Of a stretch of DNA of 64,000 bases, positions 4,742-58,625 are shown piece after piece (position 1 is the first letter of the stretch; each line of letters opens with the position of its first letter). Position numbers and translations under genes: made by a program. The DNA is taken from NCBI GenBank assembly GCA_964527235.1, contig CAZGNC010000003.1, forward strand, positions 47,809 through 111,808, written 5' to 3'. Under the pieces are notes generated by a model. The model saw nothing but the letters and a program-made list of their open reading frames with translations. It searched no databases and was not told where the DNA came from. The DNA comes from an uncultured Candidatus Saccharibacteria bacterium. GTDB taxonomy: Bacteria > Patescibacteriota > Minisyncoccia > Phycocordibacterales > UBA9973.

Positions 4742-4763
4742 TAAAATATACTACCATAACAAA

Positions 4764-4792
4764 TTGACAAATGTGAGGGATAATAATATCCT
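4764..4792 (+). promoter_or_regulatory. sigma70-like promoter TTGACA-17-TATCCT upstream of GC-rich cassette 1
   Basis: TTGACA 4764-4769, TATCCT 4787-4792. Confidence 0.45.
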
Positions 4793-4839
4793 CTTCGTTA
4801 GATAGCAACTTGCGCTGAAACCCGAACCGGGAGGGGCAC

Positions 4840-5253: not shown

Positions 5254-5315
5254 ATATAGCCGGCGGGGGAAGATCGAAAGCAACACACCAAAAAATATTT
5301 GGTGTGCTTTTATTT
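5242..5315 (+). terminator. tandem hairpin terminators (CCCCCGCCG..CGGCGGGGG then CACACC..GGTGTG + T-run); second also serves murE on the minus strand
   Basis: 9-bp GC stem then 6-bp stem followed by CTTTTATTT. Confidence 0.6.
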
Positions 5316-12528: not shown

Positions 12529-12556
12529 TTGCTGTTCTATGTTTTGTTTCGTTCTA
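12529..12556 (-). repeat. 16S trailer half of pre-rRNA processing stem (pairs with leader at 14264-14291)
   Basis: TTGCTGTTCTATGTTTTGTTTCGTTCTA here is near-perfectly complementary to TAGAACGAAACAAAACACAAAACAGCAA at 14264-14291. Confidence 0.7.
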
Positions 12557-12685: not shown

Positions 12686-14250
<1,565 letters not shown>

Positions 14251-14263
14251 ATTAAAAGTATTA

Positions 14264-14291
14264 GAACGAAACAAAACACAAAACAGCAATG
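14264..14291 (-). repeat. 16S leader half of pre-rRNA processing stem
   Basis: Complementary to 12529-12556; a typical RNase III processing helix bracketing 16S. Confidence 0.7.
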
Positions 14292-18894: not shown

Positions 18895-21800
18895 CTACAC
18901 CACTAATTGCTTAGCTATGAATCCTCTCCTGGAGGTAAACTTACCCGTCGAAAGAATTTTTGTATAAGTACCATCAGGGTTTCTTCTTTCAACTACCATA
19001 TGGTATTCACCAGGTGGAACCAAACAACAATAACGCCCATACTGATCTGTCACGGTACGTCGTATTTCTAAATTAACATTTGAATGGAATAGGCGAACTA
19101 GTGCAAATGCCAAAGGAGCCCCATCTGCCTTAAATTTCACAACACCGTACTTACTTGTTTTTGCTACACTTCTAAGACCCAAGAGGGCAAATTGCAAAGC
19201 CATGATAGTAACATTAAGTGATGACGGATTAATATAGACGTTAGCTAAGGAAAATACTAAGCCTGCGTAGAACAAGAACCCAGTAATGTGAACCCAGAAA
19301 ATCTCATGCTTCGAGAAAAAATACATACCCTTTTTGGTAACTTTATAGTATTGATTCTGGTCGAAATTTTCTTGATCCATTGGTATATCCATACTAACGA
19401 ACGCTTTGTCTGGCGTAACGGTAAATGAATTCCCGAAATAAAGATTGTCATAAATAATATCTTTACCTGTTGGTGAAATTTTCTTAGAAGGAAATGAGAA
19501 ATTTTCTTTTCTAACTTCCAAAACATATTCTCCTGGAGGTGCCACAAACCCATACCTACCATCGATATCTGTAACTGTAGAAGCAATTTCTTTACCTGAT
19601 AAATCCTTCAAAACAACGAGCACAGGATCAAGCGGTTGCTTGGTTTCGCTATCATATACTGTGCCCCAATTTCTCCTTCTCTTTCTAGTGCCAAAAATAG
19701 AGATTGTATCAAGCCAAGATCTCTTGAAACTCAAAACTGAAAATAATGCTGGATATGTGAAGGTCTCCAAAGCCACCAAACCACCTGCTGTAGCCATACC
19801 TACCACAGGTACAATAATCATAACTTCTTCTCCAGCCTCCCGTGCAACATTTAAAACCAAGCCAGAGGCCTTTCTTAAGGCTTTAGCGCCTGTACTTAAC
19901 ACACTGCGTATACTTTCTTCTAGGGATACCTGTAGGGTGATGACTTCATCCTCAGGAGTAGTAAGTGGTACCACAGGATCTTCTACAACACTAGGTGAAT
20001 TTTCAGTAGAATCTTCAGGTGAAGTGGGCGGTGTATCGACTACAGGTGGAGTAGGTTTCTTGTCTTCTTTTTTGGATTTATTTTTATCTGGGTTAGTTAA
20101 TCGTGAATTTAAAGGAGCTGGAGAATCTACCGGCATTGATAATAATTCTGTAAGTGCCCTTAGTGTTCGAGTGCTCCTGCTTCCGCTAGAACCACCCCCA
20201 GAAGGAGCTGGTGTGTAGTAAATAACAACTGCTTTGTTGGCAGCTAGATTGGTGGCTGGTGTGAAATCTGACATAGCATTGCCATACTCATCGTTTATTG
20301 TTCCAGATATCGATAGAACTTCTAAGTCTGAAGAAATATCTCCAGTTTGTGCAGTATAGTTGCATGTACCAGTTGTAGAACTAGTTACAGTAAAAGTACA
20401 GGTCCTGTCAGTTGCCCCAGTTTCTAAAGTTACAGTTACAACCCCCACAGAAGTTACCGCTTCGGAAAAAGTAACATCAATGTCTATAACTTCGCCGACA
20501 GTATAAGATCCATCTGCCTTGTCTGAAGATACATTTGTTATTGTTGGCGCTGTTGTATCTATAACAAATGCGACAGCACCTCCATTCGCAGTGGAGTACG
20601 ATGATGTCGCTCCCGAGTTGTCTTCGGTGCGAACTCTCCAGTAGTACGAACCGCCACTTAAAGTCTGCCCAGCTGTTCCTGTTGAATAAGACCCAGACCC
20701 AGCTGCTTGACCAACAGTGAAAGAGAAAGCTCCTTGAGCTGCTAATGCAGATGTGTAATCCACCACCAAGCTACCGAAGTTAGAAGAATCATCTATTTCG
20801 ATTTTGTATTTTACGGTGTCAGATCCATCGCTATCACTCAAAGAGAAAGTAAGCGTAGGTGTGGTGTCACCTGTAGTAGAACCATCTACATAACCTGCCC
20901 CACCTAGAGACGAGGGCGCGTCAGGATTACTGTTGAATCCCCAACCAGTATTATTGCCACCATTAGTAATGTTAAGTCCAGACACAGGTATAGTGGTAAC
21001 ATTTATGTTGTTCGAGTCTGTGACACTAAGATATGATATTGTGCGAGTGCCCTGTGGATCTAGCTCCCATTGATTAGTAGGCGAATTAGATACTAGAGAA
21101 AGCAGAGAGCCACTTTGACCATTTAGAGTCATCGTGCCCGTGATGGTTTGCGTACCGTTGTTTGCAAAAGTTAGAGTGTCTGCAGAAGAAACCGATTTGG
21201 TTAAATTTCGAAAAGTTGTAGAGCCAAGTATCGACTGCGAAGTTCCGTCGAGAGTTACGGTGCCCGTGCGAGGAGTGAATGTCCCAGAGTTACTCCAGTT
21301 GCCTCCAACAGTCATGTTGTAAGGAGTTGCTGTGGCGTCTAGGGTGCCTGCAGTAATTGTTAAGTTACCATTGATATCAAGTGTAGCAGGCAGAGAAAAT
21401 GTGTCGGTAGCGCCGTCAGTACTATTTATAGTTAAGTGATGATACGCATAGTTTTTAAGAGTGTATGAATCTGCACCAGCGTCACCGTCACCTGTATAGA
21501 GAACAGTAGACCCAGAAGCGAGTGAAGGATAAGTCGCGTTAGCTGTGATGGTTTCATTGCCTCTTAATTTCAATGTTCCAGAAGCGCCGACTGTAAATAC
21601 CCCAGAAGATCCATTCACTGTCACACTGTTACCATTCAAATTTAAAGTTCCCTGTGTTAAAACTAAATCCTGATTCGCGGCATCTAGGGTAAAGGTAGAA
21701 AGAAGTTGCACTTCTCCACTCGACTTATTTATCGTCATGTCACCATTAAAGACTGTTGCGGATGCGGAAGAAAAAGTTTGCGTAGAAGCAGACCCGAGAA

Positions 21801-23328
21801 ATCTGATAGGTGCATTTAATGTACTTATTGTAGTAATAACAGCATTACCGTATAAATCTATCGTACCTGTTGAAGCAATTGAGGAAATAGTTGCATTAGC
21901 AGTAAATGTGCCATTAACCACGATAGTGTCCCCAGCAGCTATGGTAAGCGTACTTGCTGTCGCATCAAAAGTAAAGTTATAAAAATCTTCGCTAGTAACA
22001 ACGTCCAAGGTGCAATCAGAACTAATAGAAGTAGTACCAGTGCCTTCGTTAAAAGTACCACCAGATTTAGTAAAGTTTCCAGATACACTAAAGTTCCCAG
22101 TCGGTGCATTAAATGTTCCGTCAGTTAAAGTAAACTTCGATGCAGAAAGTGTCGACGTAGAAACATTCACAATCTGAGAAGCATTATTAATTCTTAGCTC
22201 GGGCATACGTCCACTCGTGTGACTTATGCTCTGTGTCGCAGCTTGATCGAACAACACAACAGCAGTTCCACCACTTCCGTTGGTCACGACGACATTTCCT
22301 CTTGGGTTAATAGTACCAGTACTAACAGACATACTAGTACCATTAAATGTTAGGGTGCCATTCACAACCAAAGTATCTCCACTGGCAACGATAACATTAC
22401 TTGCGTTTGCTTCGAAAGATAGATTATAGAAATCTTCACTAGTTACAACGTCAACTGTAGAGTCGGAAGTTATTGTAACTGTGCCTGTGCCCTCATTAAA
22501 TGTGCCTCCAGATTTAGTGAAATTTCCAGACACATTAAAAACTCCCGTCGGCGCGTTGAATGTTCCAGTGGTTAAAGTAAATTTCGAGGCAGAAAGAGTG
22601 GAAGTCGAAACGTTCACCACTTGCGAAGCGTTGTTGATTCGCAATTCGGGCATTCTTCCACCGGTGTGGCTGATACTCTGAGTCGCAGCCTGATCGAAGA
22701 GAACTATCGCAGTTCCACCACTTCCGTTGGTTACGACAACGTTTCCTTTAGGGTTAATGGTGCCTGTACTTACCGACATACTCGTACCATTAAACGTTAG
22801 AGTACCATTTGCTACTATCGTGTCCCCGCTAGCTACAGTTACGTTACTAGCAGAAGCCTCGAAAGATATGTTATAGAAATCCTCACTCGTCGCCACGTCG
22901 ATGGTGCCATCTGTATAGAATCTAAGAGTTCCAGTACCCTCAGTGAAAGTACCTCCTGATTTTGTAAAATTTCTAACTGATAAAGTATTAGAACCTTGAG
23001 CAAATGTCCCAGCTGCTTGAGTATATGCTGTAGTCACAGTAAGGCTTCTATCTTGTGTAATAGTACCTGTATAACCACTATTTATATTTAAGTTTGTAAC
23101 TGACCCAGCAAATCCAGCATCAATAGTTGCATCTTTGGTGCTAAGACCTTCGAATGTCGCGATATCAGAAGATGTTGGACATATGTCAGGCCCATCCCAG
23201 TTCGCACAAGTGCTCCAGTTGTTATCTCCACCGCCACCATCCCAAGTTCTTGTGGCAGCAAAGGCTTCTATAGAATAGAAAAGTTGAGTAAAAAATATTA
23301 GAGCTAAAATAAAGAGAAATTTCTTCAT
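18895..23328 (-). CDS. giant (1477 aa) secreted repetitive surface protein (beta-strand repeats, FN3-like region, two CarbopepD_reg-like domains, C-terminal TM)
   Basis: Signal peptide MKKFLFILALIFFTQLFYSIEAFA. TRTWDGGGGDNNWSTCANW N-terminal motif resembling the start of autotransporter-associated PATR-type repeats. Three roughly 135-aa tandem repeats. Gly/Ser linker. Two ...DGRYGF/YCC..PGEY carboxypeptidase-regulatory-like domains. Hydrophobic C-terminal segment. Confidence 0.7.
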   Translation of the reverse strand: MKKFLFILALIFFTQLFYSIEAFAATRTWDGGGGDNNWSTCANWDGPDICPTSSDIATFEGLSTKDATIDAGFAGSVTNLNINSGYTGTITQDRSLTVTTAYTQAAGTFAQGSNTLSVRNFTKSGGTFTEGTGTLRFYTDGTIDVATSEDFYNISFEASASNVTVASGDTIVANGTLTFNGTSMSVSTGTINPKGNVVVTNGSGGTAIVLFDQAATQSISHTGGRMPELRINNASQVVNVSTSTLSASKFTLTTGTFNAPTGVFNVSGNFTKSGGTFNEGTGTVTITSDSTVDVVTSEDFYNLSFEANASNVIVASGDTLVVNGTLTFNGTSMSVSTGTINPRGNVVVTNGSGGTAVVLFDQAATQSISHTSGRMPELRINNASQIVNVSTSTLSASKFTLTDGTFNAPTGNFSVSGNFTKSGGTFNEGTGTTSISSDCTLDVVTSEDFYNFTFDATASTLTIAAGDTIVVNGTFTANATISSIASTGTIDLYGNAVITTISTLNAPIRFLGSASTQTFSSASATVFNGDMTINKSSGEVQLLSTFTLDAANQDLVLTQGTLNLNGNSVTVNGSSGVFTVGASGTLKLRGNETITANATYPSLASGSTVLYTGDGDAGADSYTLKNYAYHHLTINSTDGATDTFSLPATLDINGNLTITAGTLDATATPYNMTVGGNWSNSGTFTPRTGTVTLDGTSQSILGSTTFRNLTKSVSSADTLTFANNGTQTITGTMTLNGQSGSLLSLVSNSPTNQWELDPQGTRTISYLSVTDSNNINVTTIPVSGLNITNGGNNTGWGFNSNPDAPSSLGGAGYVDGSTTGDTTPTLTFSLSDSDGSDTVKYKIEIDDSSNFGSLVVDYTSALAAQGAFSFTVGQAAGSGSYSTGTAGQTLSGGSYYWRVRTEDNSGATSSYSTANGGAVAFVIDTTAPTITNVSSDKADGSYTVGEVIDIDVTFSEAVTSVGVVTVTLETGATDRTCTFTVTSSTTGTCNYTAQTGDISSDLEVLSISGTINDEYGNAMSDFTPATNLAANKAVVIYYTPAPSGGGSSGSRSTRTLRALTELLSMPVDSPAPLNSRLTNPDKNKSKKEDKKPTPPVVDTPPTSPEDSTENSPSVVEDPVVPLTTPEDEVITLQVSLEESIRSVLSTGAKALRKASGLVLNVAREAGEEVMIIVPVVGMATAGGLVALETFTYPALFSVLSFKRSWLDTISIFGTRKRRRNWGTVYDSETKQPLDPVLVVLKDLSGKEIASTVTDIDGRYGFVAPPGEYVLEVRKENFSFPSKKISPTGKDIIYDNLYFGNSFTVTPDKAFVSMDIPMDQENFDQNQYYKVTKKGMYFFSKHEIFWVHITGFLFYAGLVFSLANVYINPSSLNVTIMALQFALLGLRSVAKTSKYGVVKFKADGAPLAFALVRLFHSNVNLEIRRTVTDQYGRYCCLVPPGEYHMVVERRNPDGTYTKILSTGKFTSRRGFIAKQLVV
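21850..23000. repeat. about 405-bp tandem repeat x ~2.8 (about 80-90 percent identity) inside the giant surface-protein gene
   Basis: Repeated blocks such as gcagttccaccacttccgttggt[c/t]acgac[g/a]ac[a/g]tttcct and ttatagaaatc[t/c]tcact[a/c]gt visible at about 22250, 22700 and 22900. Confidence 0.75.
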
Positions 23329-25005: not shown

Positions 25006-25033
25006 TTGACATTATTTGTGAATTGTGTAGAAT
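25006..25033 (+). promoter_or_regulatory. sigma70 promoter TTGACA-16-TAGAAT for cassette 2
   Basis: TTGACA 25006-25011, TAGAAT 25028-25033. Confidence 0.5.
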
Positions 25034-25106
25034 ACCAAAACTGCTCAAGGGGCCGGACGAGCGTCCGGAAGCCCGAAAGGCACAGCTCTTTCAGGAGGAT
25101 ACCAAC

Positions 25107-25304
25107 GTGAGCCAGCGCACCGAACCGCACAACCCGGCACAGGACCCGAACGTTTCCTCGCTTATCGCTCCGACCACTCCGACGACCTCCAGCGTGACCG
25201 GCGACAACTCGAGCGGCGACAACAACGGCGGCGGGCGCGACGACGCCGAGCGCGCGGCCGACCAGAGCGATCCGGCGACGAGCCCGGACAACGTCGGCGG
25301 CTGA
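25107..25304 (+). CDS. GC-rich cassette 2: 65-aa acidic low-complexity peptide ending VGG (GTG start)
   Basis: SD AGGAGG 25093-25098, 8 nt before GTG. 5' UTR hairpin CCGGACG/CGTCCGG. Product SQRTEPHNPAQDP...PTTPTTSSVTGDNSSGDNNGGG...PDNVGG. Confidence 0.35.
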   Translation: MSQRTEPHNPAQDPNVSSLIAPTTPTTSSVTGDNSSGDNNGGGRDDAERAADQSDPATSPDNVGG

Positions 25305-25360
25305 CCTCTCCCGAGGCGCCGAAGCAACATCGGGACGGAATACAACCCGTCCCACAAGAA

Positions 25361-25398
25361 GGGGCATCGCAAACATCGCGGTGCCCCTTTCCACGTTT
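25361..25398 (+). terminator. terminator GGGGCATCGC-aaacat-GCGGTGCCCC + TTTCCACGTTT (copy 1)
   Basis: 10-bp stem (one G.U) plus T-rich tail; nearly identical to the copy at 25699-25736. Confidence 0.7.
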
Positions 25399-25428
25399 AG
25401 ACCCAATCCTATTAACACAACTCTACCA

Positions 25429-25456
25429 TTGACATTCTGTCTTGGTAGTGTAGAAT
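25429..25456 (+). promoter_or_regulatory. sigma70 promoter TTGACA-16-TAGAAT for cassette 3
   Basis: TTGACA 25429-25434, TAGAAT 25451-25456; paralogous to the cassette-2 promoter. Confidence 0.5.
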
Positions 25457-25528
25457 ATACATTGAAAGTCCTGATTCCGACATCGATGATCGGAAGTCCG
25501 GGGCACCGTACAACCAAGGAGGCTCCTG

Positions 25529-25681
25529 ATGGCCTACATCCGCAGCACCGACCCAAGGCCCGTCGTTGATAAAGACGACAACAAGAAGGCCGGCCTCGGA
25601 GACAGAGACATCGTCACAGTCGACACCGCGCCAGCACACGACCCGGCAGCTAACGTCAACCTGGCGGCTGGCGGGTACTGA
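25529..25681 (+). CDS. GC-rich cassette 3: 50-aa acidic peptide MAYIRSTDPRPVVDKDDNKKAGLGDRDIVTVDTAPAHDPAANVNLAAGGY
   Basis: SD AAGGAGG 6 nt before ATG 25529; not in the ORF track (under 60 aa); diverged duplicate of cassette 2. Confidence 0.35.
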   Translation: MAYIRSTDPRPVVDKDDNKKAGLGDRDIVTVDTAPAHDPAANVNLAAGGY

Positions 25682-25698
25682 AGTTCGCATCCCACAGG

Positions 25699-25736
25699 GG
25701 GGCACCGCAACATCGCGGTGCCCCTTTCCACGTTTT
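25699..25736 (+). terminator. terminator GGGGCACCGC-aacatc-GCGGTGCCCC + TTTCCACGTTTT (copy 2)
   Basis: Perfect 10-bp stem with T tail. Confidence 0.75.
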
Positions 25737-25754
25737 ATACCAACTTTTTAAATT

Positions 25755-27166: not shown

Positions 27167-27651
27167 TTTAAGTAACTATCGAAATAAATAGCGTGGCAGG
27201 TGTATCCGCCAGGGTTTTTAACCAAGTAATCCTGATGATATTCTTCTGCGGGGTAAAAGGCTTTAAATGGCTCAAGCGTGGTAACGACAGGGTTATCCCA
27301 GCGCTGAGAGTCATTTACAATTTTTATAAATTCTTCGGCTTCTTTCTTCTCTTCGTCGTTACCGTAGAAAATAGCTGAACGATAAGAAGTCCCAACGTCG
27401 TTGCCTTGCTGGTTTAGGGTTGTCGGATTATGAATTTGAAAAAAGAAATCCAGCAACTTCTTGTAAGTTGTCTGCTCGGGGTCATACTCTATCTCTACCG
27501 CCTCGGCATGACCTGGATGATTTTCATATGTAGGATTGTCATTCTGCCCGCCAGTGTACCCCACTTGGGTCTTCACAACTCCAGGCTGTGAGCGTATCAG
27601 GTCCTGCAATCCCCAGAAGCACCCACCCGCAAAGTAAGCTTTCTTATGCAT
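27163..27651 (-). CDS. msrA: peptide methionine sulfoxide reductase A
   Basis: [11 protein letters not shown] active-site motif. Confidence 0.9.
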
Positions 27652-27705
27652 TGAATTATTATAACAAGGGTTCTAGATTAGTACCATTAGCAAGGACAGT
27701 CCTTG

Positions 27706-28620
27706 CTAGATAAGATCCGCAAACTTTATCGCTTTATTCTGACTCCAATCCATAATTTTGACATACCTTCCGTTATGTTTATTCGGTCTATTATATTTAC
27801 AACCTTCACACTCATATTTTTCAACAACTTCAGGTTTTTCTTCAAACAGTGTCGACAGGCCTTTGATGATTTTAGTTTCATGATGGCAACTCATAGGTAT
27901 AACATACTTTAAACCATCCATTTGGAAGATATTCCAGCTTATAATCTCTGCAAATTCTTGTTGTATCTTAAATGTTGGTATTCGCTTAAACTTAGCCTTG
28001 TAATAATCAATAAGTGTGTAAAGTAAATTCTCGCGCGCAAGCAACACGTTATCACCCTGCCATTCATATCCATAACTTGCCCTGAAAGATTCTTTTGCCC
28101 AAAAAATCCATTCTTTTTTAGAATTACAATACTTTGAAATGATACGTAATTTTTTATCCAAAAAACCAACACGATTGTTTAATTTAATTAATTTACCAGT
28201 ATGTGCCATCGGATTGTAACGACTGACAATAAAAGGTGCTTCTCCGCAAGTTATTTCTAATTTTAATTCACGTACATAATCTTGCCAATTATTTTTATTT
28301 GGCAACTTATCTATTGCTTTATTAATTTGATCAACAATTTTTATTGGTGTAAAAACTTCTGCCCTGTCTTTTGTACGATGACGTTGCTCTTCTAAACTTT
28401 TTGCAGCGCGTGGCTGAATAAGCAAATTATATTTGCTTGTGACTAATTTAGATGTAATATTTTTATCACACAAAAATTCTTTTCCAAACTTTTCATAAGA
28501 ATCTGTCGCCCAAATAATATTCTTTTTCGTCGTATGATCTAGAAGTAAGATACCAAGCAAATCACCATTTCGATGTAATGTATTTTCGAATATATCAATA
28601 TTTTTCCTCGAGGTATTCAT
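27706..28620 (-). CDS. defence-operon gene Z: protein with gamma-class MTase motif X/I-like N-terminus (AEVFTPIKIVDQI...LEITCGEAPF) and C-terminal Cys-rich zinc ribbon; no NPPY
   Basis: Start ATG lies 4 nt after the stop of gene Y (translational coupling). CHHETK...YECEGCKYNRP cysteine cluster. Confidence 0.45.
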   Translation of the reverse strand: MNTSRKNIDIFENTLHRNGDLLGILLLDHTTKKNIIWATDSYEKFGKEFLCDKNITSKLVTSKYNLLIQPRAAKSLEEQRHRTKDRAEVFTPIKIVDQINKAIDKLPNKNNWQDYVRELKLEITCGEAPFIVSRYNPMAHTGKLIKLNNRVGFLDKKLRIISKYCNSKKEWIFWAKESFRASYGYEWQGDNVLLARENLLYTLIDYYKAKFKRIPTFKIQQEFAEIISWNIFQMDGLKYVIPMSCHHETKIIKGLSTLFEEKPEVVEKYECEGCKYNRPNKHNGRYVKIMDWSQNKAIKFADLI

Positions 28621-28624
28621 GTTT

Positions 28625-31600
28625 TTATGACATTGCTTTTAGATGAGTCTCAATAAAGTCAATTTCTTTCTTATCTAGACCATACTTTTTATATAGCTGA
28701 TGATCAATTTCGGCAATTGATTTTGACCAATTGATGTCTGAGTTGTTTGTGAAATCTTGAATCGGAACGTTTCTCCACACCTTTCCTGGATTATGTTGTG
28801 TAACTTTTAGTGTTTGAAGTAAAGTTCTACAAAATTTTGTTTTTAAATAAGAAACGCAATTGACGGCTTCTGTTTTTTTTACAAAAGAACCGATTCCGAT
28901 ATAGCTTTGTGTATAACCTACTAATTTATCACCTATAAATGGTGTGGATAAAATTTCGCCAAATTTACCTGAACCACTTGATTTTGGTAGTATCACTTTA
29001 AAGTTATCGACATTGGTGTGAGCATCTAAATACTTCTTATTAATATACTTTGAGACTCTTTTATTATTGATCAAGCCAAAAATTTTTACATTATTAGCTT
29101 TGTCACTACTTTCAGTAAATACTTTTAGTTGTTCAAATATTGGTGTAGTTAAACGTTTTTCTTGACCTCCACTTCCTATTATTTTTTTATAATTTGGGTA
29201 ATCTGCATATAGGGCATCTAAATTAAACTTGCTTTGTGTATATATAATTAGCGATAGATCAGAAAACATTATGCCCTTTTTCACTTTGTTTAGAATTGAG
29301 TTTAATTCATGGTAACTTGTAAACGATCCTATCGGACCAATATCAGCATTTGCGTCACGATACGTTATCGCTACACCCCCTTTAATATCAGTATTTGGAA
29401 ATATAGTGGATGAATTTTGCTCATAATATATAACTGATACATGTATATCTGCGAGCATTTTCTCATTCCATTCCTTTGGGGTTTTACCTGCTTTAAACAG
29501 AAAACGAGCAGGATGAATCAATGCCACCTTATCTGCCAGTTTGTATGATTCATCAATAAACAGATGATAGATCGGATTATCACTCGTGTCTTTTGTTTGG
29601 ATTTGGTATGGTGGGTTTCCTACAACTGCTGTGAATTTCATATCTTTATCTCTTAAATTAAATTTTTCTAATAATTCTACTTTCAGGTTGTAATCTTTAT
29701 AATTTTCTTTCTGCTGCAGTTTCTGAATTAAATCTTCAATATAAACAATGTTAGTTTTTGCACCTTTATTATACCCAGCTAAAGTTCTTTGCGTAATACT
29801 TTGCGCCATTGGACTTTTACAAAGCACGTATATGTTATCTTTCAATAAATCACCCCATATCTTTTGAGATATTTTCTCTTCAGGCTTTTTAATCTTTATA
29901 AGCTGCCTTGAGTACACGTTGTAAGCGGCTAATAATGGATAAAGTCCGGATTTCGAGTTTATTTCCAGTATCTTTGTGTCGTCCTGCGACCAAACACTTG
30001 TGTCAGCATCGTGACTTTTCCATTCTGGTTTTCCTGTTTTATCTGTAACTCCACTACAAAAATCATGCCCTCCAAACGCTAGCGTTAAATGTTTATTTAC
30101 AACACTCCACGGGGTGAGCACCGTCTCTTTATCAGGATTTTTAAAAGTACTGAATATTTCAGCAATTGCTTGTACTCTTTCGGTTGGCAAAAGATCATCG
30201 CAATCAAAAGCTTTAGCGCGAATACTATGAGCAACTCCTTTGAAAACATCTTCATCATAATACTTAGTAAACTCTGTAAATTTATCTTTTGATAAACCAG
30301 TTGGCATGAATTCCTTCCAAGAATCTTCGTCAACAAGATCAATAAACCTTTGAAGTGTTATAATTTCTCGCACCGACACATCAGCGCCGTACACCAACAT
30401 AGGCATACGAATACTTACTGCACGCAATATATTAATAGCATTTTTCTTTTGTTCGAAAGCTTCTTTTTTCTTTTTTAAATTTTCTTTTTCCTCCTCTGAT
30501 AACTCTAAATTTTTCTTTTTCTTACGTTCAGCCTCCTCTGCTTTCTGTAACTGAAGATCATCCATTCCAAGTTCATTAATCTTAATCTCATTTATTTTTT
30601 CGCTTGATGATGTCCCGATGATAGATTTAAGTTCATTAAATTTAGACATCTCCATTTCATCAAGCTTTAATAATTCATCGTTGTATAGCTTAGGATCATC
30701 AAAGCCATTTCGACTTACACGTTCAATAATAGCTTTTTTGAGTTGACCCAACATTACCTCAACATCATATGGTTTCATTACTCCGCCCTTGGCGGCGAGA
30801 ATTGGACAGAAGTTTAAAAATTCTCTCATCGCATCTTTTTGCTCAGGTGAATTAATTTTTCCTGATTTATGATTAAGCTCTATTGCTTCAGCTACTAATT
30901 TCAAGGTGCGATCCGGTGCAAAATCAAACACATATCCTTGAGTTTTTAGTTTACCGTCTATTTTTGCAGGGGTTTGGCAACGAAATGCTGTCTGTAAATA
31001 AGTTGTTGCGGAACTAGTATCAGACATCATAAAAACTGCTGTCCATTCAGGAACAGATGCCCCAGTAGTCAAACGTTGACCTGTAAGCGTAATGGTATAT
31101 TCATGATTTTTAATTGCCTTAGTAACACGATCTTTGGCAATTTTATCCTCCTCATCGTCACGACTATCTCCAGAAATATTTACCACACCGAACCCGCTGG
31201 AGCCAAAAACTGAATGGTCTTTGAGCAACTTCTCCATCGCCTCGATAACCTTAACCCTATTAGGTAAAAGCCACAGAGAGTGTTTATTGTAATTACGATA
31301 TTCTTTTGTTGCGTAAGGGAATTTAGTCTGTAATTTTTCATCTACTAGTAAATCTAAGAATCTTTTGACCATTGGCTCGTGAACAAATTCAGCCGTATCT
31401 TTACCCTCATCGTCCTTACGCACACGAAAAAACTCATGAAACCTAAAAGCCCCATCAAGAGAGTCGTGAAAATTTTCACCCAGACTGCCGATATGGCTGG
31501 CAAATGTATCTACATCATATGTAAATATACTAAGGGACGGCAATTCCGCGTATGGGTTTGGTATTCCGGGGTTGCGCTCGTCCCAATTTAACTTTTCTTC

Positions 31601-32650
31601 CTGTTCCATTACATAATCCCAAGTGAAAATATCTTCTTCTTCGTGCTTATGTAGAATATTGAATGGGGTTCCAGAAAGTTGTAGTACAAAATTTGCTGGT
31701 ATTTTTAAAAAAGTAGCATCCCCAAGAGCACTTTGTGTTCCCTCGTGAGCCTCATCAACAATCAACATATCCCAAGCGGTATCAAAAACTTCATCGTTTT
31801 TATCAAAACCTCTCGCCTGAGACCCAGCTGACTTATCTTCTACTACTCGTTTCGACAGTCGTAGGTCTTGTAGTGAAGCAAAGTAAACAAAAGGTTTTTT
31901 ACCCTTACTCAGAGTATTAATGTGTTCTCCTATTGTTGTTGAAGAAAATTCATAATTTGCACCAGCTAGCACCTTATTGTAATCATCGTACCAATCACTA
32001 CTAACACTAGGACGGTGAGTCACAATCAGCACTTTCTTCATTTCATTTTCTTTGGCCACCTGCATCGCTGCAGATGTTTTACCGAAACGCATTTTTGCAT
32101 TCCAAAGAAAATGCTTACGTTTTTTCTTAATAGCCTGAGTTGTCTTTTTTATGGCCTCAAGCTGATTGGGGCGAAATTGAAATTCAGAAACTGCTGAGAC
32201 TGTTCTCTCCATATTAGATAATGCCACCCTGCCTTCTTTTACAGCTTGAATTGCCTTTTTTGCAATATCCAAACTAACTTCAAACCACTCAGAATGTGAA
32301 TTTTTAATATTTTCAGCCTTGCGTTTATAACCAGAACGCTTAAGTACTTCATGCACATCATGGTCAGAAAAATATTTGTTTTCGTTAGTAATGGCAATTT
32401 CCGCATGTTCAAGAATGTAAGGGATGTCTGCCGTTTTAGTTTGCTGTATTATGCGCTTGTGAGCTGCTAAATCGATTTCTTCTCGTGTTGAATTTAAGGA
32501 TACTGTAGTCGCACTACCAATTTTTAACCGGCCCTTATGTTGTTCTCCCGGAACAGAATAAATGTAAATTACACCATATGAGAAAGTTTCATTTATTTCG
32601 CTAGATTTGTAAGGGTTATTTTCTGCTTCCGGTTTTATAATCTTGTTCAT
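28625..32650 (-). CDS. defence-operon gene Y: T5orf172/MUG113 (GIY-YIG-like)-SF2 DEAH helicase-N6-adenine DNA methyltransferase fusion (Type ISP-like)
   Basis: N-terminal YGVIYIYSV...GRLKIGSATT...EWFEV (T5orf172-like). Walker A RFGKTSAAM and DEAH box LIVDEAHEG. Helicase C motifs. VVGNPPYQ (MTase motif IV) at about 29603-29626. ATG at 32650 chosen over 32740 to avoid overlap with gene X. Confidence 0.7.
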   Translation of the reverse strand: MNKIIKPEAENNPYKSSEINETFSYGVIYIYSVPGEQHKGRLKIGSATTVSLNSTREEIDLAAHKRIIQQTKTADIPYILEHAEIAITNENKYFSDHDVHEVLKRSGYKRKAENIKNSHSEWFEVSLDIAKKAIQAVKEGRVALSNMERTVSAVSEFQFRPNQLEAIKKTTQAIKKKRKHFLWNAKMRFGKTSAAMQVAKENEMKKVLIVTHRPSVSSDWYDDYNKVLAGANYEFSSTTIGEHINTLSKGKKPFVYFASLQDLRLSKRVVEDKSAGSQARGFDKNDEVFDTAWDMLIVDEAHEGTQSALGDATFLKIPANFVLQLSGTPFNILHKHEEEDIFTWDYVMEQEEKLNWDERNPGIPNPYAELPSLSIFTYDVDTFASHIGSLGENFHDSLDGAFRFHEFFRVRKDDEGKDTAEFVHEPMVKRFLDLLVDEKLQTKFPYATKEYRNYNKHSLWLLPNRVKVIEAMEKLLKDHSVFGSSGFGVVNISGDSRDDEEDKIAKDRVTKAIKNHEYTITLTGQRLTTGASVPEWTAVFMMSDTSSATTYLQTAFRCQTPAKIDGKLKTQGYVFDFAPDRTLKLVAEAIELNHKSGKINSPEQKDAMREFLNFCPILAAKGGVMKPYDVEVMLGQLKKAIIERVSRNGFDDPKLYNDELLKLDEMEMSKFNELKSIIGTSSSEKINEIKINELGMDDLQLQKAEEAERKKKKNLELSEEEKENLKKKKEAFEQKKNAINILRAVSIRMPMLVYGADVSVREIITLQRFIDLVDEDSWKEFMPTGLSKDKFTEFTKYYDEDVFKGVAHSIRAKAFDCDDLLPTERVQAIAEIFSTFKNPDKETVLTPWSVVNKHLTLAFGGHDFCSGVTDKTGKPEWKSHDADTSVWSQDDTKILEINSKSGLYPLLAAYNVYSRQLIKIKKPEEKISQKIWGDLLKDNIYVLCKSPMAQSITQRTLAGYNKGAKTNIVYIEDLIQKLQQKENYKDYNLKVELLEKFNLRDKDMKFTAVVGNPPYQIQTKDTSDNPIYHLFIDESYKLADKVALIHPARFLFKAGKTPKEWNEKMLADIHVSVIYYEQNSSTIFPNTDIKGGVAITYRDANADIGPIGSFTSYHELNSILNKVKKGIMFSDLSLIIYTQSKFNLDALYADYPNYKKIIGSGGQEKRLTTPIFEQLKVFTESSDKANNVKIFGLINNKRVSKYINKKYLDAHTNVDNFKVILPKSSGSGKFGEILSTPFIGDKLVGYTQSYIGIGSFVKKTEAVNCVSYLKTKFCRTLLQTLKVTQHNPGKVWRNVPIQDFTNNSDINWSKSIAEIDHQLYKKYGLDKKEIDFIETHLKAMS

Positions 32651-32654
32651 AAAA

Positions 32655-33629
32655 TTATTCTTTAAACTCTCTAAAATGCCTACCGAACACGTTTTGGAAA
32701 AGAATTGCCTTTTCGTATAGCCACATGAAATATTTTTCATTTTCCGAAGGATCAGATATGTTTGCTACTTTTTTCTCAATAACAATCCTAGAGGCTACTG
32801 GTGCATCGATACATTCAATTGTTTCACCAATCTCCTTTTCGATCTCTGTTTTTTTGTCACATAAAAATTTAAATAATTCCTTATCTCTATTTATATATAT
32901 TTCACAACCCAATATATTTTCACTAAAAAGAGCGCGGAGGGAGATATGCCCTGCAGAACTACCCATGCTTACATCATACCAATGCTGAGGCCTTGGCGTC
33001 CTCAGACGAATCTGAGTGTCAATTTTTTGAACAAAATCTCTGAATTTATTCCAAAATTCTAACTGTTGTAATTTAGTATCCGTAAGCGATCCACTTACAG
33101 CACTTGTCTTTACTGTCTTTGCCCATTCGTTTGGACTGACCATTATTTCAAATTTTGGAGCAGGGTTTGAGCCCTCTATCTGCCATAGTTCAAGTTTAAT
33201 TAAAAAGAAACCAATATTCTCATCGGTGTGATCATTTAACCAATCTATCGCTTTTTGGTGTTCGTCGCGCAAATCTCTAACAATCCAAATAATAATCTCT
33301 GCGTCGTAGCCAGAGGCATAAGTAATAATCTTGCCTAGATGGTCGTGATTTGCATCTTCTAACTGGTTTTCGATTATTATTTTTCTACCCGACATTTCCT
33401 CCTCAGCTAAAATATCGACGCTGAACTTACCAACACTTGCCTCAGTTTTAATTAATTTTATGTCGACACCTATTTCTTCACTCAAAATTTCCAAATTATC
33501 TTCTTGCGATAGCCATTTTGTAAAATCTGGTTCTAGCGACCATACATCTCTCGGGTCAACTTTTGTTATTCTTGATAGATCCTTTTTTGTGTACATTTTA
33601 TTTCTTCCAATCCTTAATTTGTAACCCAC
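32655..33629 (-). CDS. defence-operon gene X: PD-(D/E)xK-like N-terminal region + DUF4268-like C-terminal region
   Basis: VGKFSVDILAEEE...GRKIIIENQL resembles a D..(D/E)xK nuclease core. Stop is 4 nt before the start of Y. Confidence 0.4.
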   Translation of the reverse strand: MGYKLRIGRNKMYTKKDLSRITKVDPRDVWSLEPDFTKWLSQEDNLEILSEEIGVDIKLIKTEASVGKFSVDILAEEEMSGRKIIIENQLEDANHDHLGKIITYASGYDAEIIIWIVRDLRDEHQKAIDWLNDHTDENIGFFLIKLELWQIEGSNPAPKFEIMVSPNEWAKTVKTSAVSGSLTDTKLQQLEFWNKFRDFVQKIDTQIRLRTPRPQHWYDVSMGSSAGHISLRALFSENILGCEIYINRDKELFKFLCDKKTEIEKEIGETIECIDAPVASRIVIEKKVANISDPSENEKYFMWLYEKAILFQNVFGRHFREFKE

Positions 33630-36683: not shown

Positions 36684-37694
36684 TTATTTTTCGCTTATGG
36701 TGTATCTATCGAGCACAGCTTCGAACATTAAAGGTGCGATAATTGTCGCGTCAGACTCTATGACGAACATCGGAGTTTCTTTAGTAAGCTTGTCCCAAGT
36801 AATCTTCTCATTCGGAGTAGCTCCAGAGTATGAACCATATGAAGTAGTAGAGTCTGAAATCTGACAGAAATATCCCCAAGGCCTAACTTCTTTCTTGAGG
36901 TCATACTTTATCGAAGGCACTACACATATAGGGAAATCCCCAGAGATACCTCCACCGATCTGGAAGAATCCTAATCCTGGGCCATCTTTCGCTAATTCTG
37001 GATACCAATCATAAAGCGCGTTCATGTATTCAACTCCGCTTTTCATTATCGTGGCACTCACTTCACCAGACTTCACATACCCAGCAAAAATATTCCCCAA
37101 AGTTGAGTCCTCCCAGCCTGGCACCACTATCGGCAAGTTCGCCTTCGCAGCTTCGAGTAGCCAGCATGCATTAGGGTCGCCTTCGTATTTACCCTTGAGC
37201 TCATCTGAGAGAAGAATTTGATAGAAATATTCATGAGGGAAATATCTCTCACCTTTAGCTTCAGCTTCTTTCCAGCGTTTTAGTATTATAGGTTCAACTA
37301 CGCGAAATGCTTCTTCTTCAGGGATAGAAGTATCGGTAACACGGCGTTCGCCACGCTCGAGGATTTTCTCATCATCTTCTTTGGTGAAATATCGATAATC
37401 AGGATAGTCCTTGTAACTATCGTGAGCTACAAGTCTAAATACTGATTCTTCGAGGTTGGCACCTGTGCAAGAAATAATATGAATCTTCTTTTCCTTGATC
37501 ATCGGCGCGAGAGTCACTCCCATCTGAGCAGAAGACATGGCACCACCCATAGCGAGCAACATTTTGCCTCCGTCGTCTAAATGTTTCTTGAAAGCGATAG
37601 TCGCGTCTTTCATCTGGCGCGAATTGAAGTTATGAAATAATTTTTTAAACAAATCTAAAACAGTTATGTTGTTGGACATGAGTACATTATACAA
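36684..37694 (-). CDS. deoxyhypusine synthase-like protein
   Basis: DHS-family pattern ...HIISCTGANLEE...FQIGGGISGDFP... and length about 336 aa. Confidence 0.6.
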   Translation of the reverse strand: MYNVLMSNNITVLDLFKKLFHNFNSRQMKDATIAFKKHLDDGGKMLLAMGGAMSSAQMGVTLAPMIKEKKIHIISCTGANLEESVFRLVAHDSYKDYPDYRYFTKEDDEKILERGERRVTDTSIPEEEAFRVVEPIILKRWKEAEAKGERYFPHEYFYQILLSDELKGKYEGDPNACWLLEAAKANLPIVVPGWEDSTLGNIFAGYVKSGEVSATIMKSGVEYMNALYDWYPELAKDGPGLGFFQIGGGISGDFPICVVPSIKYDLKKEVRPWGYFCQISDSTTSYGSYSGATPNEKITWDKLTKETPMFVIESDATIIAPLMFEAVLDRYTISEK

Positions 37695-37717
37695 ATTTAT
37701 AGAGAAAAAGAAAAAGT

Positions 37718-37746
37718 TTGACGAAAGAGCGAAAATGTGCTATACT
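37718..37746 (+). promoter_or_regulatory. sigma70 promoter TTGACG-17-TATACT for cassette 6
   Basis: TTGACG 37718-37723, TATACT 37741-37746. Confidence 0.5.
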
Positions 37747-37763
37747 GTATGTAGTAGTGTCCA

Positions 37764-38084
37764 ATGGGCACCGTGTCCTTTGGAAACCCAACCCCGACCG
37801 GGCGGAGAATAATGCTTGTAAAGATTCGCTGGAACACAAAGGTGCTGAGACTGTGTCTCAAGCACGCCAAGATCACCCGTCACGAGAAAAATGTCATCGG
37901 AAAAGCGATGACTACGGGTGAAGGGCTGGTGAATGCATTACGCATACTGGCCCAAATCCTCGCCTTCGTGGCAATGTCCATGGAGGCAAAGGAGGAAGTA
38001 ACTCACGTTGTCGTCGAACGTCATCGTGAGGCATCTGGTGCCGACCTTATCGAAGAAGAGGTTGGCGTCGGAATCGCCGCCTAG
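37764..38084 (+). CDS. GC-rich cassette 6: 106-aa (or 90-aa from ATG 37812) small protein, unknown function
   Basis: GC-rich ORF immediately after the promoter; the alternative start at 37812 has GGCGGAG upstream; shares its terminator with cassette 7. Confidence 0.35.
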   Translation: MGTVSFGNPTPTGRRIMLVKIRWNTKVLRLCLKHAKITRHEKNVIGKAMTTGEGLVNALRILAQILAFVAMSMEAKEEVTHVVVERHREASGADLIEEEVGVGIAA

Positions 38085-38090
38085 CGGTCA

Positions 38091-38138
38091 TCGCCGCCGA
38101 GGAGCCGCCAACCGCGCTCTCCGGCGGCTCTTTCGTTC
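38091..38138 (+). terminator. terminator CGCCGCCGAGGAGCCGCCaACCGCGCTCtCCGGCGGCTC + TTT (copy 1)
   Basis: 8-bp GAGCCGCC/GGCGGCTC stem; duplicated at 38375-38420. Confidence 0.6.
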
Positions 38139-38158
38139 AATAACTTAGGTGAAAAACC

Positions 38159-38371
38159 ATGAAAGAAGAAGAACGGAAAGAGCTTGAAAAGGCACTGAGA
38201 GACATCAAGCATCTAGCAATCAGATGTACGACCGATGCCTCGGGACACCTCAAGCTCTCAGAAGGAGACAGGGCCTTGATGGCAAAATACGCAGAAGCGG
38301 TCATCCAGATATTGAGCACAGCGCTCGCGACCGCAAGAAGTTTCAGGAAGAAGAAGCGAAAGAAGAAGTAA
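38159..38371 (+). CDS. GC-rich cassette 7: 70-aa helical protein with poly-Lys/Arg tail (…FRKKKRKKK)
   Basis: SD AGGTGA 7 nt upstream of ATG; followed by the second terminator copy. Confidence 0.4.
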   Translation: MKEEERKELEKALRDIKHLAIRCTTDASGHLKLSEGDRALMAKYAEAVIQILSTALATARSFRKKKRKKK

Positions 38372-38374
38372 CAC

Positions 38375-38420
38375 GCCGCCGAGGAGCCGCCGACCGCGCT
38401 CCCGGCGGCTTTTCAGTTGT
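38375..38420 (+). terminator. terminator copy 2 (CGCCGCCGAGGAGCCGCCgACCGCGCTCCCGGCGGCT + TTT)
   Basis: Near-identical to 38091-38138. Confidence 0.6.
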
Positions 38421-38458
38421 GGGTTGCCTTAAAACCTTAAATATGCAATAATAGAGCA

Positions 38459-38701
38459 ATGAATTTAGTCATAGAAATTCTGCCTTATGTGCAGATTATT
38501 CTTTCAGTAGTATTAGTGCTCGCAATACTTCTCCAGCAAACAGGTGCCGGAGTAGGCGGAGCGTTGGGTGGTGGAGAGAGCGAATCATTCAGTCACACTC
38601 GACGTGGTTTTGAGAAATTTCTTTTTTATCTATCCATTGTGTGTGGAATTCTTTTTGCTTTATCTGCATTTCTATCTATAATATTAGGAGCGAGAAGCTA
38701 A
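38459..38701 (+). CDS. secG: preprotein translocase subunit SecG
   Basis: 80 aa, two TM helices flanking Gly-rich LLQQTGAGVGGALGGGESESFS. Confidence 0.8.
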   Translation: MNLVIEILPYVQIILSVVLVLAILLQQTGAGVGGALGGGESESFSHTRRGFEKFLFYLSIVCGILFALSAFLSIILGARS

Positions 38702-53978: not shown

Positions 53979-54018
53979 AAAGGAATTCTAACACGGAAAG
54001 TGTTTTTAAATATTGATA

Positions 54019-54046
54019 TTGAAATTTTAGAGAAAATATGTATAAT
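54019..54046 (+). promoter_or_regulatory. sigma70 promoter TTGAAA-16-TATAAT for cassette 8
   Basis: TTGAAA 54019-54024, TATAAT 54041-54046. Confidence 0.5.
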
Positions 54047-54092
54047 AATAATTAGCCACAGTTCCCCAACCCGCACATCGGAGGACGCGTTC

Positions 54093-54362
54093 ATGAAGGT
54101 CGCATTCCAAACAAACCGCGGAGTCAAGGCTGGAGATAGAGTCCAGGTCATTGACGCAGGAAAAGTCGTTGATACTGGAAGAGTCCTCGGTGTCGACCAA
54201 GCAAAACTCAGACTACAGAGCGACACAGGATCGACAACCGAGTTCGGCTGGTTCCAAACCCTCGGCAAGTGGAAGATGTTATTCGAGGACGAGGAGAAGG
54301 GTCAGTGGTTCGACCCCGATGCTTTCAACTACGACATCGTGCCTGAAACCACGGCCGTCTGA
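54093..54362 (+). CDS. GC-rich cassette 8: 89-aa small protein MKVAFQTNRGVKAGDRVQVIDAGKVVDTGRVLGVD...
   Basis: SD GGAGGA 8 nt upstream of ATG 54093; terminator 54384-54430. Confidence 0.45.
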   Translation: MKVAFQTNRGVKAGDRVQVIDAGKVVDTGRVLGVDQAKLRLQSDTGSTTEFGWFQTLGKWKMLFEDEEKGQWFDPDAFNYDIVPETTAV

Positions 54363-54383
54363 TCAAGACGTCGCATCGCCCCA

Positions 54384-54430
54384 GAGCCCCCGCCGGCACC
54401 AGCCAGCGGGGGCTCGAATTCTTTTATTTC
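54384..54430 (+). terminator. terminator GAGCCCCCGC...GCGGGGGCTC + T-run
   Basis: 10-bp GC stem followed by gaattcttttatttc. Confidence 0.7.
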
Positions 54431-55376: not shown

Positions 55377-55414
55377 AGTTTAGTAAAGTATTGAAGGACC
55401 TAGAGAGGTTATAT

Positions 55415-57912: not shown

Positions 57913-57941
57913 TTGACATTTCGTGTAAAAAATGTTATTAA
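57913..57941 (+). promoter_or_regulatory. sigma70 promoter TTGACA-17-TATTAA for cassette 9
   Basis: TTGACA 57913-57918, TATTAA 57936-57941. Confidence 0.45.
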
Positions 57942-57975
57942 AATAAACAGAATCTAACCCTTGCCGGAGGTTCCC

Positions 57976-58548
57976 GTGCGTGACTCTTTAGCAGTACTCG
58001 CAGGTGTCCTCGGAGTTATGGGGTTCGTTGTTTACATAGCGTCTATGTTTCGGCGCGTGAACCCCACTCGCCCATCGAGGTCGAGCTGGACAACCTGGGC
58101 CATCTTGAACTTAGAGATCCTGGCGGGTATGCTCAAGTCAGGAACAGCGACTTTACAGATGGCAGGAATAACTCTAGGGTCTCTGTTCGCTGCGGTATTT
58201 TCTTTGCTCTACGGCAAGAAATCCGCATGGAGCCCTCTTGAGAAATTCGTCATGCTAGGCTGCGTCCTGGGGCTGTGCTTCATGATTTACAACCCGACAT
58301 GGGGCATCGCCGTTAGTGTACTCGTCGGTCCAGTCTGCGGTTGTGTGCCAGGGCTTGTAGAGGCCTGGAAAAATCCGAACAAGGAGAACAAGCTCTCTTG
58401 GGCAACTTGGGCAACATCATCGCTAATCAGCGTGATACTGTTGCCCAGTTGGAGCATCGAGAATGCAGCACAACCGGTCAGCTTCTTGGCTAACCAAGTG
58501 GCAATGCTGGTCGTGATATTTACCAGCCCGCACCGGAGACAGCAGTAA
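57976..58548 (+). CDS. GC-rich cassette 9: about 190-aa polytopic membrane protein, unknown function
   Basis: GTG start with SD GGAGG (57966-57970) 5 nt upstream. Five or six hydrophobic helices. Followed by a strong terminator. Confidence 0.5.
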   Translation: MRDSLAVLAGVLGVMGFVVYIASMFRRVNPTRPSRSSWTTWAILNLEILAGMLKSGTATLQMAGITLGSLFAAVFSLLYGKKSAWSPLEKFVMLGCVLGLCFMIYNPTWGIAVSVLVGPVCGCVPGLVEAWKNPNKENKLSWATWATSSLISVILLPSWSIENAAQPVSFLANQVAMLVVIFTSPHRRQQ

Positions 58549-58570
58549 CCACATAGCCTGACAAACCACA

Positions 58571-58625
58571 TCGCCTGACAAAAGGGATCGCCAGATGCCT
58601 ACTTGTGTCAGGCGATTTCTTTTTG
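58571..58625 (+). terminator. terminator ATCGCCTGACA...TGTCAGGCGAT + TTCTTTTTG
   Basis: 11-bp stem, T-run. Confidence 0.65.

Follow-up and report, generated by a model that had tools for sequence, protein, structure and literature searches.

A duplicated terminator-like hairpin and a polymorphism of small genes in the DS–SecG spacer of an uncultured Patescibacteria genome

The DS–SecG locus

We studied a block of two small open reading frames (ORFs), ORF A and ORF B, each followed by a copy of the same GC-rich hairpin element, on contig CAZGNC010000003.1 of an uncultured member of the Patescibacteria. The window, by which we mean the whole analysed stretch of 64,000 nucleotides (64 kb), has a GC content of 41% and carries a 16S rRNA gene and housekeeping genes. 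The two-ORF block occupies a conserved spacer, with a deoxyhypusine-synthase-like gene, hereafter DS, on its left (36684–37694, minus strand) and the divergently oriented SecG gene on its right (38459–38701); features are on the plus strand unless stated otherwise. Relatives of DS assign the window to the Patescibacteria; they come from metagenome-assembled genomes (MAGs) that were deposited under the names Paceibacteria or 'Nomurabacteria'. The genomes of Patescibacteria are very small; these bacteria probably live on other cells, and few data exist on how they gain genes and control gene expression.

Upstream of ORFs A and B, our promoter scan found a single candidate, a sigma-70-type promoter TTGACG-17-TATACT with a TG extension (37718–37746), which matches the consensus at 10 of 12 positions and is kept in five related loci (L005, L006, L089, L090 and L091). 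The next promoter is that of SecG, TTGCCT-17-AATAAT with TG (38424–38452), where the inserted block ends on the right. In relatives whose site is empty, the same SecG promoter lies ~70 nt from the DS start. Nothing promoter-like was detected in the interval from ORF A to ORF B, in agreement with the original prediction that the second ORF lacks a promoter of its own. The 5' leader of the block (37753–37811, ~59 nt) is conserved, and consists of a hairpin, a C-rich stretch and the Shine-Dalgarno sequence GGAG (37804–37807). The leader hairpin (UCCAAUGGGCA / UGUCCUUUGGA, 37760–37784, 11 bp) lies at the very 5' end of the predicted transcript. Its pairs are identical across three lineages, save one U-U mismatch in the window, and it lacks covariation because its sequence barely varies. 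It may act as a 5' stabiliser.

ORF A (37812–38084, stop codon TAG at 38082–38084) encodes a predicted all-helical ORFan protein of 90 aa. It had initially been read as 106 aa, but the shorter form, from the ATG at 37812 with GGAG at 37804–37807 preceding it, is the better one. In L005 the upstream ATG at 37764 reads AAG, and a 1-nt indel disrupts the frame of the 106-aa extension; one public gene call likewise begins ORF A at the 90-aa start. The L005 orthologue is 90% identical, with a dN/dS of 0.17, and the 23 substitutions between the two are distributed 6/2/15 by codon position. AlphaFold2 predicts five helices, with a predicted local distance difference test (pLDDT) score of 69. The coding RNA of ORF A can form six consecutive hairpins, with a minimum free energy of −112.7 versus −82.4 ± 4.4 for shuffled sequences (z = −6.8); the z-score was −3.4 for the L005 orthologue and −0.65 to +1 for host-gene controls. 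Compared with L005, these RNA stems show a compensatory change at one pair and six broken pairs. Given the codon-position pattern and the dN/dS value, we rejected the possibility that ORF A is solely a non-coding structured RNA.

ORF B (38159–38371, stop codon TAA at 38369–38371) encodes a 70-aa protein with a helix, a short beta-hairpin, a long helix and a lysine-rich tail (AlphaFold2 pLDDT 86). The C-terminus reads FRKKKRKKK, in line with the lysine/arginine tail described earlier. A Shine-Dalgarno sequence, AGGTGA (38147–38152), can be read 6 nt 5' of its ATG, and its counterpart in L089 is AAGGAA at the matching place. ORF B is missing from L005, L090 and L091. Its sole relative among 1.84 billion representative proteins is ORF B', at the same locus of a sister species, with 44% protein and 59% DNA identity (dN 0.45, dS ~1.6). 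The two proteins have their hydrophobic pattern and lysine tail in common.

Neither ORFs A and B, nor A' (the ORF upstream of B'), B' and the other scanned cassette ORFs of the window, had a credible match in Pfam, PHROGs, PADLOC or NCBIfam. Searches for homologues in 5.8 billion proteins (word-indexed) and in the 1.84 billion representatives (phmmer) returned same-locus proteins only, and Foldseek comparisons of the AlphaFold2 models of A and B with the PDB gave no significant match. The GC content at third codon positions (GC3) is 0.58–0.59 for ORFs A and B, 0.54–0.88 for all cassette ORFs of the window, and 0.27–0.42 for host genes. ORFs A and B are real, fast-evolving ORFan genes. We also considered a toxin-antitoxin pair, and set this idea aside: A exists without B, B' is paired with the unrelated A', and no family match supports it.

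The repeated GC-rich element

A 28-nt core, CGCCGCCGAGGAGCCGCC[A/G]ACCGCGCTC, occurs exactly twice in the window, at 38092–38119 and 38374–38401. The two copies differ at one base, stand in tandem 282 nt apart, and had 0 matches in 100 dinucleotide shuffles. The elements do follow immediately upon both ORFs, as had been noted before: copy 1 lies 8 nt past the TAG of ORF A and copy 2 lies 3 nt past the TAA of ORF B. Copy 1, of the internal type (38093–38139), consists of a hairpin (38093–38128) and a tail TCTTTCGTTCA (38129–38139); its arms are an outer arm GCCGCCG (38093–38099), an inner arm GAGCCGCC (38102–38109) and a 3' arm CGGCGGC (38122–38128). Copy 2, of the terminal type (38375–38419), likewise has a hairpin (38375–38409) and a tail TTTTCAGTTG (38410–38419). 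Both copies fold as GCCGCCG-A-GGAGC-C-GC ... GC-GCUC(U/C)-(C)-CGGCGGC, with a stem of 12–14 bp and an energy of −25.6 kcal/mol (copy 1) or −27.5 kcal/mol (copy 2). Across six variants of the element, the outer-arm hairpin ranges from −22.4 to −27.8 kcal/mol, and it is recovered whether the element is folded alone, in a longer context or in the whole 673-nt transcript.

A stable GC-rich hairpin followed by a U-rich tail has the appearance of an intrinsic terminator, and on this point the sequence bears out the original prediction. The T-tracts are UCUUUCGUU in copy 1 and UUUUCAGUU in copy 2. Their T-scores are 2.5 for the internal copies, whose tail is interrupted by a C, and 3.4 for the terminal copies, compared with 5.1 for an ideal T8. 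The sister species keeps this difference between internal and terminal copies, and the internal-type tail follows ORF A' in L089 and L006. The tail of copy 2 and its downstream flank are identical in L005 and L089, with 1–3 base differences in the hairpins. A simple terminator scan called neither element, probably because its rules (an unbroken stem and a loop of 3–8 nt) do not fit a bulged stem.

The element appears to be specific to this locus. Among 86 loci searched, only those with the three allele types described below carry copies, and none was found elsewhere in the window or in 497 kb of related loci. A covariance model of the element, run against 60 sources, returned the known copies only, plus a weak match to another terminator. 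Metagenome contigs scanned for the exact pattern contained a single match, a chance one in coding DNA of high GC content, and there was no match in viral contigs or in BLAST searches of phages and plasmids. Rfam searches recovered only the 16S rRNA and two tRNAs in the whole window at the gathering score, and nothing better than E = 0.2 in an E-value search of 37650–38500 (851 nt). The heptamer CCGCCGR is enriched in the window (14 observed vs 4.7 expected); nine of these 14 copies are in cassette terminator hairpins, six of them in the two elements described here.

Three allele types

Independent assemblies of the locus were found through exact-protein look-ups and one homologue, and a genome scan for DS gave 80 loci; exact-protein look-ups of SecG and DS yielded no additional strains. 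Three allele types were distinguished, in which P denotes the promoter-leader and e the element. P-A-e-B-e is the allele of the window and of identical Logan contigs, which break at the repeat. The P-A-e allele of L005, L090 and L091 lacks ORF B and one element copy and is ~291 nt shorter, of which 282 nt correspond to the repeat unit. L089 and L006 have P-A'-e-B'-e, where A' is an ORF of 96 aa unrelated to A, and B' is the relative of B described above.

L005 and L006 belong to one species, with nucleotide identities of 97% in the SBP genes and 100% in the SecG genes, and the window genome is ~85% identical to each of them. Hence, ORF A crosses a species boundary at 90% identity, yet it has been replaced within a single species. 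The homology between alleles extends from DS through the promoter and leader to GGAGAA and breaks 2–6 nt before the start codon of ORF A; it restarts at or just past the stop codon, at the element. Non-coding stretches of the locus reach 93–96% identity, against a background of ~85%. Moreover, the lone element of L005 combines the copy-1 base (A) at the A/G site with the spacing and tail of copy 2, a mosaic that is the expected product of a crossover between the two copies.

The original prediction overlooked what we regard as the main point, namely that a cassette polymorphism has the duplicated element as its conserved boundary. This polymorphism at the level of whole ORFs, between a conserved promoter-leader and a conserved hairpin, is a more interesting property of the locus than the alternative pairing of the hairpin.

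In the co-assembly of L006, an N10 gap (3243–3252) is followed by the tail of a further ORF and then by a third variant of the element. Since this further ORF lies behind the gap and is absent from L089, it is probably another allele. On the MAG scaffold CAZUID010000016.1, GTGGGTTGCCTTAAAACC stands just before the N10 gap and again ~100 nt past it, where it ends a third element copy, which suggests that two terminal-cassette alleles of a co-assembly were joined.

The DS–SecG spacer and other mini-cassettes

The spacer between DS and SecG is 30–94 nt long in about nineteen relatives and 140–2,900 nt in about twenty-five others. Its cargo is unrelated between relatives, frequently GC-rich, and inserted in either orientation; the spacer is an insertion hotspot. 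Examples from 'Nomurabacteria'-like MAGs (L007–L057) are GC-rich membrane proteins (L010, L048) and response-regulator-like genes (L053), together with a GC-rich mini-operon of two ORFs (L024), a micro-ORF of 11 codons that has a perfect promoter (L025) and, in L043, a long GC-rich inverted repeat.

Elsewhere in the window, at 25007–25400 and 25430–25740, two more GC-rich mini-cassettes stand in tandem. Both carry a TTGACA...TAGAAT promoter of their own, along with a Shine-Dalgarno sequence and a small ORF that is disordered (65 and 50 aa; GC3 0.88 and 0.75). The two ORFs are unrelated, and the only part in common is a terminator hairpin of ~40 nt, of which 27 nt are identical (25372–25398 and 25709–25735). 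Solitary GC-rich cassettes occur in AT-rich intergenic spots at 4760–5310 (plus), 26960–26690 (minus), 54010–54430 (plus) and 57915–58600 (plus). In each of them, a strong promoter and a C-rich leader with GGAGG precede an ORFan (137, 44, 89 and ~190 aa, respectively), which is followed by a GC hairpin. A family scan of the 137-, 89- and ~190-aa ORFs, with the 44-aa ORF left unscanned, gave no match.

Expression of the two-gene unit

The reading that we favour, with moderate confidence and from the sequence of the locus, is that the elements are two copies of one Rho-independent terminator module within a two-gene unit served by a single strong promoter, in a recombining locus. Transcription would start near 37753. 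The internal copy, with its C-interrupted tail 8 nt past the ORF A stop codon, probably ends only some of the transcripts, and ORF B, made from the read-through RNA, would be expressed less than ORF A. With its better tail, the terminal copy would shield the SecG promoter just downstream.

The position of ORF B makes its expression by read-through of copy 1, with the weaker tail, plausible. The tail of copy 1 ends 19 nt before the ORF B start codon and, since the interval has no promoter, ORF B would be transcribed only by read-through from 37718–37746. The same spacing is found in both species, where B and B' begin 19–20 nt past the internal-type tail CTCTTTCGTTCA, which is identical although the upstream ORFs A and A' are unrelated. 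It seems unlikely that one promoter for ORF B would have been conserved inside two unrelated upstream ORFs, and we therefore infer that ORF B needs partial read-through.

Such an arrangement resembles known intrinsic terminators and partial terminators within operons, in that a GC-rich hairpin and a modest U-rich tract stand just past the stop codon, the internal copy with the weaker tail precedes a promoterless gene, and the terminal copy precedes the next promoter. Unlike ordinary terminators, however, the same 45-nt sequence follows unrelated ORFs and remains ~85–96% identical between variants while the ORFs are replaced, and its 5' arm is internally duplicated.

Alternative pairing

The internal duplication had been noticed before, as alternative pairing potential, and it is real: the 3' arm CGGCGGC has two potential 5' partners, GCCGCCGAG at 38093 and the same motif again inside the inner arm at 38102–38109. 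Indeed, GCCGCCGA occurs twice, the second time 11 nt downstream, within GAGCCGCC. The suggestion that this duplication forms an attenuator-like switch is not supported, however. The two 5' arms share a single 3' arm next to a single U tract, and therefore neither fold is an antiterminator. When each alternative fold was forced in the six element variants, RNA ending at the 3' arm, which represents the state in which termination is decided, gave −21 to −27 kcal/mol for the outer arm and −8 to −15 kcal/mol for the inner arm. The outer-arm hairpin was thus favoured by 10–19 kcal/mol in the nascent RNA of all six variants, and the inner-arm fold competes only where the U tail can pair freely with the GA-rich spacer, i.e. 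in released or read-through RNA.

The covariance analysis proposed with the switch points in the same direction. When the six variants were aligned by hand according to structure, two-sided changes occurred in the outer-arm hairpin only, where three pairs show compensatory changes (the outermost from G-C to A-U, and two in the second stem) and one pair is broken. The inner-arm fold has one-sided changes only. A search for a sensing element, either a leader peptide or an Rfam motif, found none, and the sequence upstream is the full 90-aa ORF.

Terminator, switch or stabiliser

These results bear on two other views of the hairpin. According to one of them, the 3' arm would choose between the two 5' arms and thereby decide between termination and read-through into ORF B. 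The presence of both arms in all six variants is in its favour, as is the finding that, once the U tail is freed, the inner fold comes within 0–6 kcal/mol of the outer fold in four of the six variants and is the minimum in copies 2 and 3 of L006; yet one internal copy retains a gap of ~10 kcal/mol even then. The position of the outer arm, 0–8 nt from the stop codon, adds a further argument, as a terminating ribosome could mask the outer arm and leave the weaker inner arm. In Escherichia coli, a terminator a few bp past a stop codon was strongly repressed by the ribosome (PMC4824070). A weaker version of the switch, in which a ribosome at the stop codon leaves only the inner arm available, is conceivable. 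Even so, the shared 3' arm and U tract, the preference of nascent RNA for the outer arm, the confinement of two-sided changes to the outer-arm fold, and the lack of a sensor or Rfam family in our searches all argue against a switch, and the terminal copy has both arms with nothing downstream to regulate. We consider this view very unlikely: the alternative pairing exists, and it is not a regulatory switch, a role that finds no support in the folds, the covariation or the sensor search. In all likelihood, the second 5' arm arose as a by-product of an internal repeat, and it is at most a back-up arm under ribosome cover. According to the other view, the hairpins would be mainly stabilisers or processing sites at the 3' end of the mRNA, in the manner of repetitive extragenic palindromic (REP) elements or intercistronic hairpins, and not terminators. 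The very stable stems with modest U tails fit this idea, and so do the ability of a freed 3' tail to fold back on the GA-rich spacer, the conserved hairpin at the 5' end of the transcript and the unusually structured RNA of ORF A (z = −6.8). Yet all copies have kept a U-rich tail abutting the stem, and the terminal copy sits exactly where the SecG promoter needs insulation. A mainly stabilising function is therefore rather improbable in our view, although it can coexist with a role in termination.

Origin of the polymorphism

As DNA, the fixed promoter-leader and the repeated hairpin form conserved flanks, with gain, loss and replacement of unrelated ORFs between them. The most likely route would be homologous recombination between these flanks, either by unequal crossing-over within a genome or by replacement of alleles between strains.

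Several considerations weigh against this account. Homologous recombination explains the shuffling of ORFs, but it does not explain how unrelated ORFs first arrived between the same leader and hairpin, and the recurrence of unrelated ORFs with a shared terminator at 25007–25740 hints at an insertion process more specific than chance. The public data comprise three allele types and six element variants, so that the covariation rests on few events. In addition, the U tails have only 5 U among their first 8 nt and are thus short, and terminators of Patescibacteria may have requirements of their own.

Two other origins of the polymorphism can be considered. An old tandem duplication of an ORF with its terminator, after which the ORFs diverged and the terminators were kept by function or gene conversion, would explain the pattern without ongoing exchange. 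The tandem arrangement of the copies at 282 nt is what such an event would leave, and evolution of the cassette ORFs is rapid, with 44% identity between B and B' compared with ~96% for neighbouring proteins. However, ORFs A and B have no similarity, and within one species A was swapped for the unrelated A' between the same flanks while A was kept at 90% identity across a species boundary. This combination indicates exchange or long-lived alleles, rather than only divergence in place, and we regard the duplication as unlikely. Alternatively, the hairpins might be sites of site-specific recombination, comparable to the attC sites of integrons, at which a recombinase encoded elsewhere inserts or excises cassettes of an ORF plus hairpin behind the promoter-leader. 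Much of the layout would agree with this: one promoter, co-oriented ORFs of which the second is promoterless, an imperfect inverted repeat with unpaired bases after each, and ORF-precise replacement between conserved boundaries inside one species. The second pair of unrelated ORFs that share a terminator, and the co-assembled relative in which a further ORF tail is followed by the same element, would agree as well. Yet the element measures ~37–47 nt, and known attC sites are longer. It is confined to this locus in the window and in the 497 kb of related loci, and is absent from the metagenome and viral collections save for one chance match. Nor does it contain paired GTTRRRY / RYYYAAC core sites, whereas attC sites have R boxes of the form RYYYAAC ... 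GTTRRRY (PMC5027507). On both strands, these motifs were absent from four of the five element copies checked with their flanks, and copy 3 of L006 has, at its 5' edge, a lone plus-strand ACCCAAC (GTTGGGT when read on the minus strand) with no partner box. Pfam scans of 30 larger ORFs of the window, with 8–10 ORFs of 120–200 aa or more unscanned, gave no integrase, transposase or recombinase domain, and no such family was among the precomputed Pfam assignments of five further genes at 38.7–47.7 kb. An attC-like site is thus quite improbable. The same low probability applies, in our judgement, to a cassette system of Patescibacteria that has not been described before, in which the hairpin and the promoter-leader form a junction module and GC-rich ORFan units, each an ORF plus hairpin, are inserted into a chromosomal expression site, excised from it and swapped there by a recombinase encoded elsewhere or by hairpin-directed replication or repair. 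Such a system would be functionally analogous to integrons but unrelated to attC/IntI, and it would also have produced the other GC-rich mini-genes, including those at 25007–25740. The simplest route is still homologous recombination between the conserved flanks, and a dedicated cassette mechanism is no more than a possibility.

Comparison with known systems

Like integron arrays (attI, Pc, attC), the locus combines a fixed promoter with small co-oriented ORFan cassettes, the second of which is promoterless, that end in imperfect palindromes, and the content of the cassettes varies between close relatives. It differs from them in lacking an attC core pair and, in the Pfam-checked part of the 64-kb window, an integrase, and in its much shorter element. 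An array holds one to two cassettes here (with a possible third ORF behind the assembly gap of L006), the Shine-Dalgarno sequence of the first ORF sits in the fixed leader, and the neighbours are the DS-like gene and SecG.

Similarly, REP elements and bacterial interspersed mosaic elements (BIMEs) are short GC-rich imperfect palindromes past stop codons, and the element could, as they do, stabilise upstream mRNA and offer homology for rearrangement. REP elements number tens to hundreds per genome and are associated with a transposase, the REP-associated tyrosine transposase (RAYT). In contrast, our element is present twice in 64 kb, at a single locus, and no RAYT (Y1 transposase) was found among the Pfam-checked ORFs of the window, with several mid-sized ORFs unscanned. 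The locus also resembles insertion hotspots with strain-specific ORFan islets, as the DS–SecG spacer varies and its cargo is unrelated and often GC-rich. Unlike in ordinary hotspots, the cargo here is modular (promoter-leader, ORF, hairpin), with boundaries that are conserved while the ORFs change.

What emerges is a compact unit in which a promoter close to consensus, a 5' hairpin and a strong ribosome-binding site precede a small ORF with a GC hairpin at its end. Its coding part varies between close relatives, and its control parts are fixed. If the hairpins do more than terminate transcription, the locus would offer a simple natural system in which genes are exchanged at a site of expression. 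The ordinary reading would still yield testable terminators and graded expression of two genes, in a phylum with scant experimental data. Furthermore, the locus draws attention to lineage-specific, GC-rich small proteins, which may be under diversifying pressure.

Other features of the window

The 16S rRNA gene (12692–14256, minus strand) is flanked by a 28-nt inverted repeat (12529–12556 and 14262–14289, 93% complementary), probably a processing stem, and is followed by tRNA-Ala. As the window contains no 23S rRNA gene, the rRNA genes appear to be unlinked. A low-GC stretch at 27600–33600 (0.28–0.38) encodes a DUF4268 protein and a 1371-aa fusion (28625–32740, minus strand) with T5orf172, ResIII helicase and Eco57I-type methylase domains. 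The stretch probably represents an islet for restriction-modification or defence. Next to tRNA-Gln lies a gene for an AAA_15/AbiEii-like ATPase (55391–57232). Finally, a 300-nt direct repeat (21888–22187 and 22335–22634; 72% identity, 447-nt period) inside an ORF of 1477 aa (18895–23328, minus strand) probably represents repeated domains of a large surface protein.

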